Shown here one piece after another: positions 1 through 6,034 of a stretch of 6,034 nt of DNA. The notes under the pieces are model-generated. The model was not told the DNA's origin. It was given only the letters and a program-made list of their open reading frames with translations, and searched no databases. Both the position numbers and the translations under genes were made by a program. The stretch comes from a virus (Duplodnaviria; Heunggongvirae; Uroviricota; Caudoviricetes), in the IMG/VR virus record IMGVR_UViG_2671180429_000014; one strand, 5' to 3'. Each line of letters starts with the position of its first letter. The first letter of the stretch is position 1.

Positions 1-289
1 TCGCAACCGCATCATTCACCGCCTGCTGCAGTACATCCGGATCATAATCACGACCATCACGCGGTACCGGAATGGTCCCCACAGCGTCATCCACCATCGC
101 CTGCAGAACCGGATGTACCTCATCCACCGTCACATGCTTCTGTAATACCGCCGACAGGGAAGCCAGTTTCTCTTCAAACGCTTGTGCCTGCGCGGCCATC
201 TTCCCCTCAAATGTGCGCTGTAAATCCGCCAGCACCGTGGAGAATTCTTCGCCCAGTGCACGAATAATGGACAGTTCCCGTTCCGTCAT
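1..289 (-). CDS. Hypothetical phage protein, N-terminal 96 codons only (continues past window start); function unknown
   Basis: Manual translation of the reverse complement from ATG at 289..287 is open for 96 codons to the window edge (MTERELSIIRALGEEFSTVLADLQRTFEGKMAAQAQAFEEKLASLSAVLQKHVTVDEVHPVLQAMVDDAVGTIPVPRDGRDYDPDVLQQAVNDAVA...). Its ATG overlaps the portal stop as ATGA (plus 286..289 = tcat). Not in the ORF track, presumably because it has no stop inside the window. I do not recognise the sequence. Confidence 0.5.
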   Translation of the reverse strand, partial: MTERELSIIRALGEEFSTVLADLQRTFEGKMAAQAQAFEEKLASLSAVLQKHVTVDEVHPVLQAMVDDAVGTIPVPRDGRDYDPDVLQQAVNDAVA

Positions 290-1503
290 TTTCTCAGTAT
301 CCCCCTGAACATCGCTTTCACTGCATCATGCTCTGTTTCACTGATTGCCTTATTACCGTCAGATGCGCCGTCAGGCAGTTGTGCTGAAACTGTTTTCCCG
401 GCCGACGCGAACGGGTCCTCACGGGCATCACGACGGGACAGCGCCTCCAGACTGTAGTTCTGCTGCTGAAGATACAGTGCATCACCACCGGCAAGGGGCG
501 GCAGGTTCTCACGTTTACGGGCCTCATTGGGCGTGAGAAGCGTATTTTTCACTGATTCACCCAGTGTTTTCATGCGCCGTTCGCTGTCCATTCTCAGCAG
601 CGTGGTGACGTCAAACTCCGTGCTCTCGTTTTCCCCCGTTTCCAGCGCCTCATCCAGTAACAGCTCAATGGACTCAATCAGCGTCTGCAGACACTGGGAA
701 TAATACTGCTGCTCCAGCGCCTCCACGTTGTCACTGGAAGGCGGGTGGCCAACGCCAATCTTGTAGGCCGGGACACGGAACACCGAACAGACAATTTCAG
801 CNNNNNNNNNNNNNNNNNNNNNNNNNNNNNNNNNNNNNNNNNNNNNNCCGCCATTTCTGAAAAAATACGTCGAATTTGCCTGAATATGATGCCCCTGCAT
901 GGCGGCCAGTCCTGCGGCATACACCGGCGGCAGCCCCACAAGCGGATGAAAAAAACAGTTAAAACGGTCGTGGATCACCTCCCGGGCAGGCACCGTCACC
1001 GACTCTGTGATCCCACAGTTCCGGTCCGGCGTGATGCGGTAGAACACGTCGCCGTCATCCGCCACCAGAGGTTCAACCCGGTTCCAGTCCAGAATACGCA
1101 GTTCTTTGATCTGCCCCCGGGGGTTGCGGATTTTCAGCACCACCGTATTGCCGTGACGCAATTTGGAATTCAGCCACAGTTCAAAAAACTGGATGCGATT
1201 CTGCTGCGCATTAGGACGACGACAGAGACGGGCAGTATCTCCCTGCCGCTTTTCCCGGCGTATTCCCTGTACATCAGTCTGCATCAGGCGAAGCCGCATT
1301 TTGGCGATATCCTGGGATATCAGCGAAATGCATGAAAACACCGCGTGAAAGGACAAAACGGTTTCCGGATCGGCTTTCACACCCTGCTGCCAGGCACCGG
1401 CAAAAGGCTCAGCCACCGCCTGAAACAGGGACCGCCAGCCCACTTCTCTTACGTCACGTCCTGATTTCTGGTTTTTTCGGGTTCGCCGCAAAAGGTTCCA
1501 CAT
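286..1503 (-). CDS. Phage portal protein, HK97-like family; reading frame interrupted by a 46-nt N run
   Basis: 405-codon ORF with ATG start at 1503 and an in-frame stop 5 codons upstream, so no longer N-terminus is possible. GGAG sits 8 nt upstream of the ATG. Motifs typical of HK97-type portals: SFHAVFSCISLISQ near the N-terminus, EIVCSVFRVPAYKIG, and C-terminal LTPNEARKRENLPPLAGGD. Recognition is from memory of the family. Confidence 0.85.
   Translation of the reverse strand: MWNLLRRTRKNQKSGRDVREVGWRSLFQAVAEPFAGAWQQGVKADPETVLSFHAVFSCISLISQDIAKMRLRLMQTDVQGIRREKRQGDTARLCRRPNAQQNRIQFFELWLNSKLRHGNTVVLKIRNPRGQIKELRILDWNRVEPLVADDGDVFYRITPDRNCGITESVTVPAREVIHDRFNCFFHPLVGLPPVYAAGLAAMQGHHIQANSTYFFRNGXXXXXXXXXXXXXXXXAEIVCSVFRVPAYKIGVGHPPSSDNVEALEQQYYSQCLQTLIESIELLLDEALETGENESTEFDVTTLLRMDSERRMKTLGESVKNTLLTPNEARKRENLPPLAGGDALYLQQQNYSLEALSRRDAREDPFASAGKTVSAQLPDGASDGNKAISETEHDAVKAMFRGILRK
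802..847. other. Run of 46 N (assembly gap or masked bases) inside the portal gene
   Basis: Directly visible: c at 801, n at 802..847, ccg at 848..850. The X residues in the ORF track come from this run. Confidence 0.99.
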
Positions 1504-1678
1504 TCGCCATGCTCCGCATCACGTTTCTTTTTCTGACCTGCCGGACGTCGCGCTGTGATGTACTCCGCCTTCCCCAGGCGAACCAGCACCTCCGCACACG
1601 GCTGTGCCACATCACGGATATCCCCGGCCCGGGCATCATGCGTGCCCTGCAGATACTGGATTTTTGCCATCTGTTACT

Positions 1679-1700
1679 GCGGGAAGCTCGCGCCTCCCGC
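1679..1700 (-). other. RNA stem-loop in the capsid-portal spacer (9-bp stem including one G-U pair, GNRA-type loop GCGA); no U-tract follows
   Basis: Minus-sense sequence 5'-GCGGGAGGC GCGA GCUUCCCGC-3' (reverse complement of plus 1679..1700), beginning 15 nt after the capsid-gene stop TGA (1717..1715). Followed by AGUAACAG, so it is not a canonical intrinsic terminator. Confidence 0.4.
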
Positions 1701-1714
1701 CCTCCTCATCAGAC

Positions 1715-3652
1715 TCAGCCACCGGACGCAGTTCCGTAGTTCACACCGGTGATCACCGCCACTGCCGCGGTACGGCGACGACGCCAGTTGATCCAGCGCT
1801 CCGCACGGATGGCCACGCTGCCGGTCTGAAACATGGAGACCAGTTCCACCGGTGACGGTGTGCTGCTGTCGCTGGTCGGTTCAGACTGCATCTCCAGTGA
1901 CGCTTCACGGGACATATCCACCGCCACACCGCCGTCATCAGCCAGATAAATATCCGGTGCATTCACCAGTACCAGCTGGTCACCCACATACTGGGAGACA
2001 ATCACCGGCAGCCCCTGGAAGGTCCCGCCCAGCAAGGTCATGTCCGGATATTCCTTCTGACCCAGCGCATTTTTACGCATGGACAGCGCCAGGGCATTGG
2101 TGCTGGACATCAGCCAGACCGCACCGGTGGGCTGCAGATTTGCCGTCACAAACTGGCCAAACGCGGCCTCGGCATCCGCATCCGGGTTACCGGTTGATGC
2201 CGTGCCCTTCACATCATGGGTGATGGACGCCGGGGAGACATCCGCCACCGCCGCTTTTTTCGGGTCCACAAAGTCTGTGTCCAGACGCGCCACCACCGCT
2301 TCCGCCAGCGCATTACGGACCAGTGCATCAGCAGCCGGACTGGAAAAACGGATCAATTCTTCCGTCAGTACCGCAATGGCCGACACTTTCGCATGACTGA
2401 AGGTGATGGATTCAAAATCAAACTTCGTCAGGGGTCTGGCCTTACCCTCACCCACCCAGCCGGCAGCACCACCGGACACCTGGGCATGCACGCGGATATT
2501 GAACGGCACCTGACGAAGTGCAGGGATCCCGCCCTGACCAAATCGCCCGATAATGGTCTGCGGACGCAGGTAATCAATAAAGTCCTGCGCATATTCCTGG
2601 TATTCAGACAGGCTGCCTGCCCACTGCGGGTCCGTGGTGGTCCCTGCCCCCACCGCCGATTTCAGGACATGATGCAGACGGCTGTCATCCGGATACTGAC
2701 GACGGGCCACTTCCAGGGCTTCAGAGCGGACACCTTTAGCCGCGGCCAGTGATTTGGCAAAGCGGGCGAAACCAATCCCCTTCTCCAGTTTCTGCTCAAC
2801 ACGGATCACCGGCGCTGAAGCCACCGTGGCCACATTCCCGTTACCGGCCTGTTTCACCGGCTGTGCCGTGGCGGCCTTACTGGTTTCCAGTTCACGCAGA
2901 CGCTTCAGGTGCGCATCCACCTGACGGATTTCCGCTGCGGTGTTGTCGTAGTGCTCTTCCTCTTCCACATCCAGTGTGCGGCCTTCCTCTGCGGCTTTGT
3001 TCATGATCTCCTCAAGGGAGGCTGCCAGCGCCGCACGCTTGTTTTCAAAACTTTTAATCTGTTCACCAGTATTCATTGCTGACTTTTCCTTATGAAAAGA
3101 GGTTATTGACTGTGCCGAAGCGCCGGCAGAAGATGCGATTTTCACCACCGGTTTCCGGTTGCCGGACGCGGCAGAAAACGGGCGGTCGAAATATTTAATG
3201 GTCCGGATGGTGCATTCCGCATTCGCGGGCACGGTGACGGCAGACACCTCCATCAGCTCCCAGCGCAGAAAATGCAGTCCGCCTCCGTCCAGATAAGTGT
3301 ATTCATGGGGCCGGAAGCCCACAGAAAGCCCCCTGACCAGCCCGGTCTTAATGGCAGCCCAGGCCTCATCCAGCCGGGCTGCCATCTGGGAGGGCATCCC
3401 CGGCTCCGGCTTCACCAGCATTGCCGTGATTTCCAGCCCTTCCCTGACCCGACGCACCGTACACTGGCCTACAGGGCGGGAATGGTCATGCTGCCAGAGA
3501 AACGGGATCGTACTGCCAAACTCCGCCCCCTCCGGCTCCAGGATGTCACCATCCCGATCCGGAGAAGGCGTTGACGCAATCCCGGTGATCACCCGTTCAT
3601 CCTCACTGAAGGATTTCACCGTCAGCAGGGAACAGGCCCGTTTAAGAGTCAC
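1715..3652 (-). CDS. Fusion ORF: HK97-type prohead protease domain (about residues 1-157), Ala/Ser-rich linker, coiled-coil scaffold-like segment, major capsid domain (about residues 260-645)
   Basis: 645-codon ORF starting at GTG (3652..3650) with AGGAGG (3663..3658) 5 nt upstream. The N-terminal region carries the His and Ser motifs I associate with HK97 gp4-type proteases (LWQHDHSRPVG and RGLSVGFRP) and the PANAECT segment. Residues about 193-260 are Glu/Lys/Ala-rich and predicted coiled-coil (EQIKSFENKRAALAASLEEIMNKAAEEG...LKRLRELE), resembling a capsid delta domain. The C-terminal 385 residues are assigned as major capsid by size, position and context; this part is inference (about 0.7). 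Confidence 0.82.
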   Translation of the reverse strand: MTLKRACSLLTVKSFSEDERVITGIASTPSPDRDGDILEPEGAEFGSTIPFLWQHDHSRPVGQCTVRRVREGLEITAMLVKPEPGMPSQMAARLDEAWAAIKTGLVRGLSVGFRPHEYTYLDGGGLHFLRWELMEVSAVTVPANAECTIRTIKYFDRPFSAASGNRKPVVKIASSAGASAQSITSFHKEKSAMNTGEQIKSFENKRAALAASLEEIMNKAAEEGRTLDVEEEEHYDNTAAEIRQVDAHLKRLRELETSKAATAQPVKQAGNGNVATVASAPVIRVEQKLEKGIGFARFAKSLAAAKGVRSEALEVARRQYPDDSRLHHVLKSAVGAGTTTDPQWAGSLSEYQEYAQDFIDYLRPQTIIGRFGQGGIPALRQVPFNIRVHAQVSGGAAGWVGEGKARPLTKFDFESITFSHAKVSAIAVLTEELIRFSSPAADALVRNALAEAVVARLDTDFVDPKKAAVADVSPASITHDVKGTASTGNPDADAEAAFGQFVTANLQPTGAVWLMSSTNALALSMRKNALGQKEYPDMTLLGGTFQGLPVIVSQYVGDQLVLVNAPDIYLADDGGVAVDMSREASLEMQSEPTSDSSTPSPVELVSMFQTGSVAIRAERWINWRRRRTAAVAVITGVNYGTASGG

Positions 3653-3657
3653 ATCAG

Positions 3658-3663
3658 CCTCCT
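3658..3663 (-). promoter_or_regulatory. Shine-Dalgarno AGGAGG for the protease-capsid ORF
   Basis: Minus-sense ...UUUUUUUAUUUUC AGGAGG CUGAU GUG; 5-nt spacer to the GTG start, immediately preceded by a U-rich tract. Confidence 0.6.
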
Positions 3664-3664
3664 G

Positions 3665-3690
3665 AAAATAAAAAAACCGCCGCAGCGGTT
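3665..3690 (-). terminator. Candidate rho-independent terminator (weak) between large terminase and capsid gene, minus orientation only
   Basis: Minus-sense 5'-AACCGC UGCG GCGGUU-3' (plus 3675..3690; 6-bp stem with 4 G-C pairs, 4-nt loop) running into UUUUUUUAUUUU (plus 3665..3676). Lies 25 nt after the terL stop (3718..3716). On the plus strand the hairpin is followed by catgatgg, not a T-tract. Confidence 0.45.
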
Positions 3691-3715
3691 CATGATGGTT
3701 ACAGGGTGAGCAGGG

Positions 3716-5377
3716 TTATATGAAAAAAACCTCATACGCTTTCTTTTTCGGTTCCGGATTCAGGGACATCAGGGACACCGCATTGAAGAGCGCCATCAGC
3801 GGGTCAATTTTTCCCCGTCCGCTGGCCTGTTTGGTGATAAGAATGGCGTTACCTTTAGGCTCCACCCGGGCATTACCGACACACCAGGCCATCAGGGGCT
3901 GATCACCGTGAATCAGCACCCCTTCAGCCAGTTTGCGCTCGGTGGTTTTGATGGCCCCGCCCAGCTTCCAGCCCTGGCTTATCCCCACCACACTCTCATC
4001 GGGGATCCCGGCTTCCGCCAGTGAATCCAGAATCTGCCCCACACCTGACGGGTCAATACCGATATGATCCAGTAACTCAGCCTCATGAATACGACGCACA
4101 TACTCCGCCACTTCCGCCGTGTCATCCCCGACCCGACGGACAATCGTCATGTCTCCACAGGCCACAAAATCCTGAAACCGGGATGCCTCACTCTTCCGTC
4201 TGACCACCGCGGTTTCATGCACCCAGGCATGGCCCCAGCCCAGCCATTCGCGGGTTTCCCTGTCACGGCCAGTCACGTACATTCCCAGCAGATCATCCAG
4301 GCCCCCGCCGTCAATCCCCACCGTCACCACATCAGCGCGCTGCAGGATATCGTCCAGGCTGACGCGCCTGCCCTGCTGCTCCCAGAAATCCGCGCCCGCC
4401 CAGCGGTCAGAACGCAGGGCAAGACCGATTTCCACATTGGCGTGTTTTGACATGAAGCCACGAAATGCTTCCTCACCAGCCTCCCGGGCTTTACGGTACT
4501 CCCGGTACAGAAAGGCCTCATCCACCGAATAACCGAGATTCGGGTTAACCATGGCGAGGTTTTCCATCAGCAGGTGAGCCCCGCTTTCCACCATTTCAGG
4601 AGGATGCTCAAAAATCACCGGCAGAAAGTGCGGATCATGAATTTTGCCGTCACGGACATCCCGGGCATACTGCAGTTTCTGTCTGAACACCCCGGCGGGC
4701 GGTTCATTCGACTGGGTGGTCGTATACACCACAAACCCTTCCGGACGGGAGGCAAGCCCGCCGATGGCTTCACGTAGCATGTCTTCCGCCTTGTACTGCT
4801 TGCCAAACAGCCACAGTTCATCAATCAGTGTCCCCACGGACTTGATACCGGACACCGTATTCGGATCGGCTGCCACCACCTTCAGGGTGGTGTCCGTCAC
4901 CCGATGGGTGATGGTCCGGATATGTGTCTGCACCTGACAGAGGTCATCCAGATCATCGTCCCGTCGTACCATATCCCTGGCAGGGTTGAAGGCGTTAGCC
5001 GCCACCTCCACGGTCGGGGCCAGAATGGTGTAGCCCGCCGCCTGCCGCCAGTTCAGTAACAGCGCCGTCATCATGATCCCCGCAGCCAGCGTGGACTTAC
5101 TGTTTTTCTTGGGGATAAGGATAAACACTTCCTTGATATGGCGAACACCGGTCTGCGCATCGTAGGAGCCAAACAGGGCCGCCACCAGGTCAAACACCCA
5201 CGGTGCACAGGACTCCCCGAATGTCGGGCTACCCGGTGCATCCACAATTCGCAGTTGTTTAAAAATCGCCAGTGCATGTGCAGCCTGGTCCGGATAAATC
5301 GGAGCCGGAATAATCGACAGCCCCTTTTTCAGGCGCTCTGCCCAGTCCGGGCAGGCCGTGCTCCACACAGGTATCAT
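3716..5377 (-). CDS. terL: Terminase large subunit (lambda/HK97-like Terminase_1-type ATPase-nuclease)
   Basis: 553-codon ORF with ATG at 5377 and GAGG 7 nt upstream. Walker A-like ILIPKKNSKSTLAAG near residues 85-100, LKVVAADPNTVSG and DELWLFGK segments, and C-terminal nuclease-region motif GKIDPLMALFNAVSLM, all typical of this terminase family as I recall it. Start overlaps the terS stop as ATGA (plus 5374..5377 = tcat). Confidence 0.9.
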   Translation of the reverse strand: MIPVWSTACPDWAERLKKGLSIIPAPIYPDQAAHALAIFKQLRIVDAPGSPTFGESCAPWVFDLVAALFGSYDAQTGVRHIKEVFILIPKKNSKSTLAAGIMMTALLLNWRQAAGYTILAPTVEVAANAFNPARDMVRRDDDLDDLCQVQTHIRTITHRVTDTTLKVVAADPNTVSGIKSVGTLIDELWLFGKQYKAEDMLREAIGGLASRPEGFVVYTTTQSNEPPAGVFRQKLQYARDVRDGKIHDPHFLPVIFEHPPEMVESGAHLLMENLAMVNPNLGYSVDEAFLYREYRKAREAGEEAFRGFMSKHANVEIGLALRSDRWAGADFWEQQGRRVSLDDILQRADVVTVGIDGGGLDDLLGMYVTGRDRETREWLGWGHAWVHETAVVRRKSEASRFQDFVACGDMTIVRRVGDDTAEVAEYVRRIHEAELLDHIGIDPSGVGQILDSLAEAGIPDESVVGISQGWKLGGAIKTTERKLAEGVLIHGDQPLMAWCVGNARVEPKGNAILITKQASGRGKIDPLMALFNAVSLMSLNPEPKKKAYEVFFI

Positions 5378-5937
5378 CCGTTGCCCTCATTATCATTATT
5401 CACCACCAGGCGGGGTGGTGGTGGCACCGCAAAACGGTTAGCCGCTTTTTTCGCCGCGTCACCTTTTGCCGATTTTTTACCGGCATCCCCTTTTTTATGG
5501 TGCGTGAACTGCGCCAGCTTATAAGCCGCATCCAGCGCCAGCCTGGGGTCGGTATTAATGTTCTCCACCAGAAGACGCCCCATCGCTTTCACCGGATCGG
5601 GAAGACCATCCTCCATATATTCAATACCAGGAGACATCACCGCGGACGGTGGCATCTCCGGATTGTTTTCGTCCGGCTGTGGTATTGCAGCCGCCTCACG
5701 GCGACGGGGTTTATCCTCCTGCTCTGATTTTTTCTGCCGGTAAACAGGAACCTCATCCACCTCCACCGTCTCGCATTGTTTACGGGCTATAAACGCAAGC
5801 ACCTCCGGATCTTTTGCCAGCTGCGAGCCTTTAACCCTGGCGGTCTTCGCCGAATAACCAGCGGCAATGGCTGACGCTGTTTTGTTTTTCCCGGACATGA
5901 GCGCCAGCGCAAATTTTCGTTTTTGCGTTGTCAGCAC
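5374..5937 (-). CDS. terS: Terminase small subunit (Terminase_2/P27-like, N-terminal helix-turn-helix)
   Basis: 187-codon ORF starting at GTG (5937..5935) with GGGAGGAGG immediately upstream and an in-frame TGA 21 codons further up with no ATG between. N-terminus MLTTQKRKFALALMSGKNKTASAIAAGYSAKTARVKGSQL matches the HTH pattern of small terminases of this type. Lys/Ala-rich, low-complexity C-terminus. Sits directly upstream of terL and is translationally coupled to it. Confidence 0.75.
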   Translation of the reverse strand: MLTTQKRKFALALMSGKNKTASAIAAGYSAKTARVKGSQLAKDPEVLAFIARKQCETVEVDEVPVYRQKKSEQEDKPRRREAAAIPQPDENNPEMPPSAVMSPGIEYMEDGLPDPVKAMGRLLVENINTDPRLALDAAYKLAQFTHHKKGDAGKKSAKGDAAKKAANRFAVPPPPRLVVNNDNEGNG

Positions 5938-6034
5938 AGCCTCCTCCCGGGTCCAGAACGCACTCAGCCGGGTATGGTTCAGCCCATTTTTCCCGGCCTC
6001 TCATGCCGCAAATGTTAACTGCTGCCTGGTTAAC

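Follow-up and report, generated by a model that had tools for sequence, protein, structure and literature searches.

Phage head and packaging genes that very likely belong to a lambda-like Escherichia coli prophage and not to a capsid-forming satellite

Phage head genes found without their neighbours raise the question of whether they come from a complete prophage or from a chromosomal island which builds its own small capsid and borrows the tails of a helper phage. We address this question for a stretch of 6,034 nucleotides of the IMG/VR virus record IMGVR_UViG_2671180429_000014 (Caudoviricetes), referred to here as the window. A sequence-only reading of this DNA had recognised terminase, capsid, protease and portal functions in compact, coupled genes, and these were all borne out by the list of open reading frames (ORFs) and by the Pfam, PHROG and NCBIfam scans from which our gene assignments are taken. 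The same reading had described the content as head functions only, which is right for the head genes but leaves out two more genes, an ORF of 73 aa and the start of a portal-adjacent gene. It had also pointed to a protease-capsid fusion and to a non-canonical gene order, both of which are seen, and had stated that the window alone cannot separate a prophage from a satellite, with which we agree. From the copies of this block in other genomes, we are highly confident that the window is the head and packaging gene block of a long-tailed, lambda-like temperate phage or prophage of Escherichia coli, often a carrier of Shiga toxin (Stx) genes. As such the object is already known: it is the head block of Pankowvirus-type lambdoid prophages, which are usually Stx-converting.

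Relatives of the head block and their flanking genes

The chromosome of E. coli O103:H2 strain PV16-126 carries a copy which is 100% identical to the window outside a mask of 46 N, and the Stx1a-converting phage Stx1_699 is 99.9% identical to it. Over 99% of the window, identity is 94.8% for phage 2851, 95.0% for 1717, 93.2% for YYZ-2008 and 95.6% for WGPS8, while BP-4795, which has been described as a siphovirus (PMC6986202), falls within 93-95%. At least 80% of the window is covered in 92 phage records, including 2851, 1717, YYZ-2008, BP-4795 and phi330. According to a taxonomy lookup, 2851, 1717, YYZ-2008, WGPS6 and WGPS8 are members of the genus Pankowvirus; the likeness of the window to this genus was judged on the 6-kb module alone, and not on a whole-genome criterion.

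In both Stx1_699 and the PV16-126 prophage, the block is followed downstream by genes for a connector, a head closure protein, a gp10-like protein, a tail terminator, the major tail protein, chaperones and the tape measure, and further downstream by genes for gpL/K/I-like proteins, gpJ, Lom and a tail fibre. Upstream of the block lie genes for an HNH endonuclease, Rz, endolysin and holin, followed by stx1AB, Q, O/P, cII, cro and cI, with a tyrosine integrase gene at the far end. The holin, endolysin and Rz genes are found 1.3-5 kb upstream of terS, and the integrase gene about 20 kb from the window. The PV16-126 prophage fills the gap between torS and torT with approximately 45.4 kb (NZ_AP038987.1 1227960-1274140); related phage records measure 48-62 kb, and the elements span 45-58 kb overall. 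An O111:H11 strain, Sakai Sp10, an ST131 strain and the isolated phage vB_EcoS_phi330 share this layout, and genes for the major tail protein, tape measure, gpJ and tail fibre directly follow the module in six loci (L001 to L005 and L067). The toxin genes stx1AB are present in Stx1_699 and PV16-126, and the ST131 copy, whose module is 93.6% identical, is without stx.

We also analysed 60 IMG/VR contigs carrying the module. A major tail gene was present in all 23 contigs which reach at least 4.2 kb downstream, and an endolysin gene in all 11 which reach at least 9.3 kb upstream. The prophage alternative of the sequence-only reading was thus the right one, as in every context that we examined the module is contiguous with a complete set of lambda-like tail genes and with a lysis cassette. 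The connector proteins, whose genes lie directly downstream in the relatives, would attach the packed head to a tail which the phage itself encodes.

The satellite alternative corresponds to the phage-inducible chromosomal islands of the capsid-forming kind (cf-PICIs), elements of 10-15 kb with a small capsid of their own and with tails supplied by a helper phage. The functions in the window, namely terS, terL, portal, protease and capsid, are exactly those which cf-PICIs and phages share. However, in the cf-PICI model of SatelliteFinder tail and holin genes are forbidden, and integrase, regulator and primase modules are required (PMC10085698), and it is these forbidden genes which stand contiguous with the module in every copy. 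A contiguous set of tail and lysis genes is also what the sequence-only reading had named as speaking against a satellite. That reading had further proposed to look for an integrase, an alpA-like regulator and a primase within a total of 10-15 kb; the relatives are instead 45-58 kb long, with lambdoid cI/cro/Q regulation and replication genes of the O/P or helicase type, and no gene is annotated as alpA or as a primase-replicase in the two full-length contexts, Stx1_699 and PV16-126. On the gene context of its relatives we rejected the satellite reading, which we regard as extremely unlikely. We also think it very unlikely that the window is a head-only remnant, left in its source genome after deletion or insertion sequence (IS) activity stripped the tail or lysis part. 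Genomes of Shiga toxin-producing E. coli (STEC) do hold a median of two and up to ten matches, some of them partial (17% coverage in DEC5D), and IS629 interrupts terL in 1717 and Stx2a_F349; against this, the ORFs of the window are all intact apart from the mask, in 1248 of the 1260 records with a match a single place covers 80% or more of the window, and the sampled contigs all run on into tail or lysis genes. It is hardly conceivable that the block is a domesticated head cluster resembling a gene transfer agent and retained by its host, even though the portal resembles in sequence the Rhodobacter capsulatus portal Rcc01684, whose structure is solved: the module travels with stx, integrase and lambdoid regulation genes, its insertion sites differ among strains, and all but 1255 of the 5426 complete E. 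coli genomes lack it. This distribution and the varied sites are the pattern of a mobile prophage, and not of a vertically inherited host locus.

Some points weigh against the assignment to a complete prophage. The context described above is that of identical and near-identical copies, which would stand in for the window's own flanks. In the copy which is 100% identical, that of PV16-126, the tape-measure and lom genes carry frameshift flags and the integrase gene has an IS3 element next to it, so that this prophage may be defective and not infectious, although such a defect would not make it a satellite. When the borders of this copy at torS and torT were checked for attL/attR repeats, as the sequence-only reading had suggested, direct repeats of at least 11 bp were absent. 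Finally, we found no experimental data in the literature on the processing of the fusion protein or on an internal start within its gene. The assignment to a lambda-like prophage is nonetheless the one we retain.

Further observations concern individual copies. The record of Stx1_699 has an annotated 21-bp duplication, which belongs to a different insertion site. Genes for the effectors EspJ and NleG lie at the tail-fibre end of the PV16-126 prophage. Anti-repressor and regulator genes form a block which breaks the row of tail genes in an Entomohabitans prophage (L084 17732-19927) and in phi330 (L067 2023-3190). In phage 1717 (FJ188381/NC_011357) IS629 lies inside the packaging module, and in Stx2a_F349 (AP012530) it divides terL into two pseudogene fragments, so that the module is inactivated in some copies. 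Three E. coli chromosome records (NZ_CM139231.1, NZ_CP107142.1 and NZ_CP123349.1) start exactly at the start codon of the terL of this prophage, and our guess is that an assembly-rotation tool took the phage gene as the origin.

The window is best annotated as belonging to a complete lambdoid prophage, often Stx-converting, and not as a satellite. About one in four complete E. coli genomes carries the module, often more than once (median of two and up to ten places per genome). This distribution bears on the recombination of Stx prophages, and multiple copies per genome give ample room for recombination among co-resident lambdoid prophages.

Gene layout and the protease-capsid fusion

All credible genes of the window are on the minus strand, in the order terS, terL, fused protease and capsid, 73-aa ORF, portal and start of the repeat protein gene (Table 1). 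They are tightly packed: terS shares 4 nt (ATGA) with terL, and so does the portal gene with the gene after it, 55 nt at the start of the portal gene are shared with the 73-aa ORF, and there are only two intergenic gaps, of 63 and 44 nt. Directly after the hairpin between terL and the capsid gene come an AGGAGG ribosome-binding site and the GTG start of the fusion gene. The number of terminator-like sites in the window equals chance expectation, the promoter scan of the window found zero sites, and the Rfam scan of the window gave no family at threshold.

Table 1 Features of the window (positions in the 6,034-nt stretch).
Feature	Position (strand)	Size or extent	Support and remarks
Non-coding leader 5' of terS	5938..6034 (-)	final 97 nt of the ~289-nt HNH-terS spacer	ribosome-binding site GGAGGAGG
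terS	5374..5937 (-)	187 aa, GTG start	Pfam Terminase_2, 1.5e-8; phrog_641, 2.6e-68
terL	3716..5377 (-)	553 aa	Pfam TerL_ATPase and TerL_nuclease; phrog_9, 4e-147
GC-rich stem-loop with T-run	3674..3691 (-)		between terL and capsid gene; terminator-like (consensus scan)
Prohead protease/major capsid fusion	1715..3652 (-)	645 aa	S78 domain at about 1-160, linker, delta-like coiled coil, HK97-fold capsid 193-645
Protease catalytic residues	His55 codon 3490..3488, Ser110 codon 3325..3323 (-)		align with HK97 gp4 motifs FNH and GMSVGF
In-frame Met193	3074..3076 (-)		AAGGA 10 nt upstream (region 3081-3090); candidate internal start
73-aa ORF	1449..1670 (-)	73 aa	between capsid and portal; phrog_829, 8e-39, function-unknown family
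HK97-family portal	286..1503 (-)	454 aa in relatives	Phage_portal, 2.3e-79, 267 bits; TIGR01537, 365 vs 112 bits
Mask	802-847	46 N	replaces 193 portal bases present in all relatives
G5 homopolymer	301..305 (-)	5 nt	13 nt ahead of the portal stop codon; L004 counterpart about 20296-20301
Portal-adjacent gene	1..289 (-)	first 96 codons of a 407-aa gene	Stx1_699 (L001) 17265-18488

In relatives, the HNH endonuclease gene lies directly upstream of the leader, beyond the edge of the window. The cos site is probably located in the spacer between this gene and terS, because the arrangement of HNH and terminase genes is of the HK97 type and the phi330 record carries a note on cohesive ends. Late transcription from a Q-antiterminated promoter would read through HNH, terS and terL, and, judging from the domain families of these proteins, the terminase and the HNH nuclease would cut the cos site and pump DNA into proheads as in HK97.

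Both halves of the fusion protein are recognised by domain models. In Pfam, Peptidase_S78 (PF04586) matches residues 48-151 with 32.7 bits (cut-off 21) and Phage_capsid (PF05065) residues 386-635 with 55.5 bits (cut-off 24.2), and the NCBIfam capsid model TIGR01554 matches residues 204-584 with 80.9 bits (cut-off 27.5); the NCBIfam protease model TIGR01543 scores 44.1 bits, under its cut-off of 59. The fusion matches phrog_617 over its full length. It has 29% identity to the HK97 protease gp4, and its catalytic residues His55 and Ser110 do not vary among 26 sequences, which comprise homologues from 25 loci of other species and the window itself. The capsid part showed no BLASTP similarity to HK97 gp5, and a PDB sequence search with the fusion returned a single marginal capsid match (9d9w, E=0.003).

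The residues past Met193 have a typical coiled-coil composition, as in an N-terminal delta-like region, and Met193 itself stands just ahead of the start of the TIGR01554 match. It is kept in the homologues from Enterobacterales and Marinobacter, and is not found in the alphaproteobacterial ones. One could speculate that Met193 serves as an internal start which gives a stand-alone capsid protein, and that initiation there may add to the shell protease-free subunits which include the delta domain. By analogy, the fusion would carry the protease into the shell, and after assembly the protease would excise itself together with the scaffold segment. A literature search gave nothing specific and experimental on this fusion or on the portal-adjacent protein.

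Fusions of 644-650 aa with both Pfam domains are found in Salmonella, Klebsiella, Enterobacter, Serratia, Pantoea, Kosakonia and more genera, and a single E. coli cluster of the fusion holds 9916 sequences. A species-level scan with one genome per species (GTDB) identified 29 loci of other species and none of E. coli. The order HNH, terS, terL, fusion, 73-aa ORF, portal, repeat protein and adaptor recurs throughout the Enterobacterales, and a reduced form, consisting of the fusion, the portal and mostly also terL and the repeat protein, is found in Marinobacter and alphaproteobacterial genomes. The Entomohabitans locus gave no tape-measure match, and has genes for head closure, neck, tail terminator, major tail and tail chaperone proteins. 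Judging from these comparisons, the fusion and the gene order are conserved traits of a broad phage lineage and do not hint at a satellite. A protease-capsid fusion, or a portal gene placed after the capsid gene, should not be read as a satellite marker in similar windows.

Portal region

The ORF of 73 aa, which has no Pfam or NCBIfam match, is found at the same position in most Enterobacterales loci, with 40-57% identity. The portal protein which follows is matched over its residues 43-420 by portal chains of solved structure, 8cez and 9lbn among them, and as an HK97-family portal it would nucleate the prohead. Its reading frame is unaffected by the mask, whether read with 46 N or with the 193 bases, and coordinates to the right of the mask are shifted by 147 relative to real copies.

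The end of the portal gene exists in two alleles, and a tract of five or six G residues is the sole difference between them at the junction. With G5, as in the window, the region encodes a 454-aa portal and a separate 407-aa protein, and with G6 it encodes one fusion of 861 aa, such as the single ORF of the ST131 copy. Among the 60 IMG/VR contigs with the module, 37 have G6 and 23 have G5, and both tract lengths occur within three haplotypes with identical 500-bp flanks, which reflects either recurrent mutation of the tract or homopolymer errors in some assemblies. Annotation of the region differs between databases: for these STEC prophages RefSeq gives a single frameshifted pseudogene of 2.58 kb, and phage records describe it as two "portal" genes. 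In loci of other species, two ORFs are present in 22 of 23 cases and a fused one in 1 of 23. Because these loci are nearly all split and the 454-aa product spans the whole portal model, the G5 allele of the window represents the usual arrangement, and the widespread label of a frameshifted portal pseudogene is probably a mis-call, which probably understates how intact STEC prophages are. We also considered a programmed ribosomal frameshift at the end of the portal gene, in its AAAA-TGA context, and dropped it, given that the change between G5 and G6 lies 13 nt upstream and that 22 of 23 loci have two ORFs. That the portal annotation becomes clearer is a small side result of this analysis; two ORFs in the portal region are the normal arrangement in related phages, and the main value of the result is in annotation.

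The 407-aa protein is usually labelled as a second "portal protein", by transfer, or as the end of a "frameshifted portal". Its N-terminal helix is long and is followed by helix-loop repeats of 27/54 aa, which vary in number, and by a C-terminal beta domain; the protein matches phrog_1289 and phrog_2271. The 54-aa repeats are encoded by a tandem array with a period of 162 bp (3.3 copies at 98% match; 17731-18263 in Stx1_699), the edge of which is formed by bases 1-64 of the window. Its copy number varies among prophages: an additional 324 bp is present in some of them, and the protein occurs in variants of 353 and 407 aa. The family counts 5403 cluster representatives, most of which are stand-alone proteins 250-550 aa long.

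A first AlphaFold2 model of the repeat protein, from a shallow alignment, was unusable (pLDDT, the predicted local distance difference test score, of 39), and in a second one the C-terminal beta domain was modelled confidently, with pLDDT of 94-98. In a fold search with the model, the C-terminal tip superposed on chitin-binding CBM5/12 domains at 1.8-1.9 Å over 46-47 residues, and the model also weakly resembled phage tail-fibre and receptor-binding proteins; one family member scores above the Pfam CBM_5_12 threshold. A portal- or neck-associated, carbohydrate-binding and fibre-like role is a reasonable guess for this protein. A further-reaching proposal, that the family is a widespread, uncharacterised fibre-like virion component with a CBM5/12-like tip, and that the G5/G6 tract is a heritable switch between free and portal-fused forms, appears rather unlikely to us.

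Comparison with known systems

The closest known systems are the Pankowvirus phages, BP-4795 and the Stx1a, Stx2a and Stx2c prophages of STEC, which have the same block, gene order and fusion gene at 93-99.9% nucleotide identity over the whole window, and in which HNH, lysis, connector and tail genes flank the block in the same way. We found no substantive difference between these elements and the window; the allele differences among them concern the G5/G6 tract, the copy number of the 162-bp repeat and an occasional IS629.

The cf-PICI prototype EcCIEDL933 also has its own HNH, terS, terL, portal, protease, HK97-fold capsid, adaptor and connector (PMC10085698; 10.1101/2025.02.11.637232). All eight are present in the element described here, and they are non-discriminating, since phages share them. 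The difference lies in the rest of the element: cf-PICIs measure about 15 kb, form T=4 capsids and carry int-alpA-primase modules (PMC10085698; bioRxiv 10.1101/2025.02.11.637232), without tail or holin genes, whereas the present element has a length of 45-58 kb, its own tail and lysis genes and lambdoid control.

An N-terminal protease joined to an HK97-type capsid is also the architecture of the curated families NCBIfam NF045541 ("prohead protease/major capsid protein fusion protein") and phrog_4523 ("major head and protease protein") and of the "major capsid protease fusion protein" annotated in actinobacteriophages (PMC12760985). The fusion of the window scores 52.7 bits against NF045541, far under the cut-off of 525, and it is a member of another fusion family, phrog_617.

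With the head module of HK97 (gp1-gp5 and the HNH protein gp74), the window has in common an HNH-associated terminase, an HK97-family portal, the same set of connector genes, the His and Ser motifs of the S78 serine protease and an HK97-family capsid with an N-terminal delta-like region. In HK97, however, protease and capsid are encoded by two genes and the order is terL, portal, protease, capsid, whereas in the window they form one gene which precedes the portal gene, and the 73-aa ORF and the portal-adjacent repeat protein gene are additional. The module would work like the HK97 head module and is a distinct, conserved variant.

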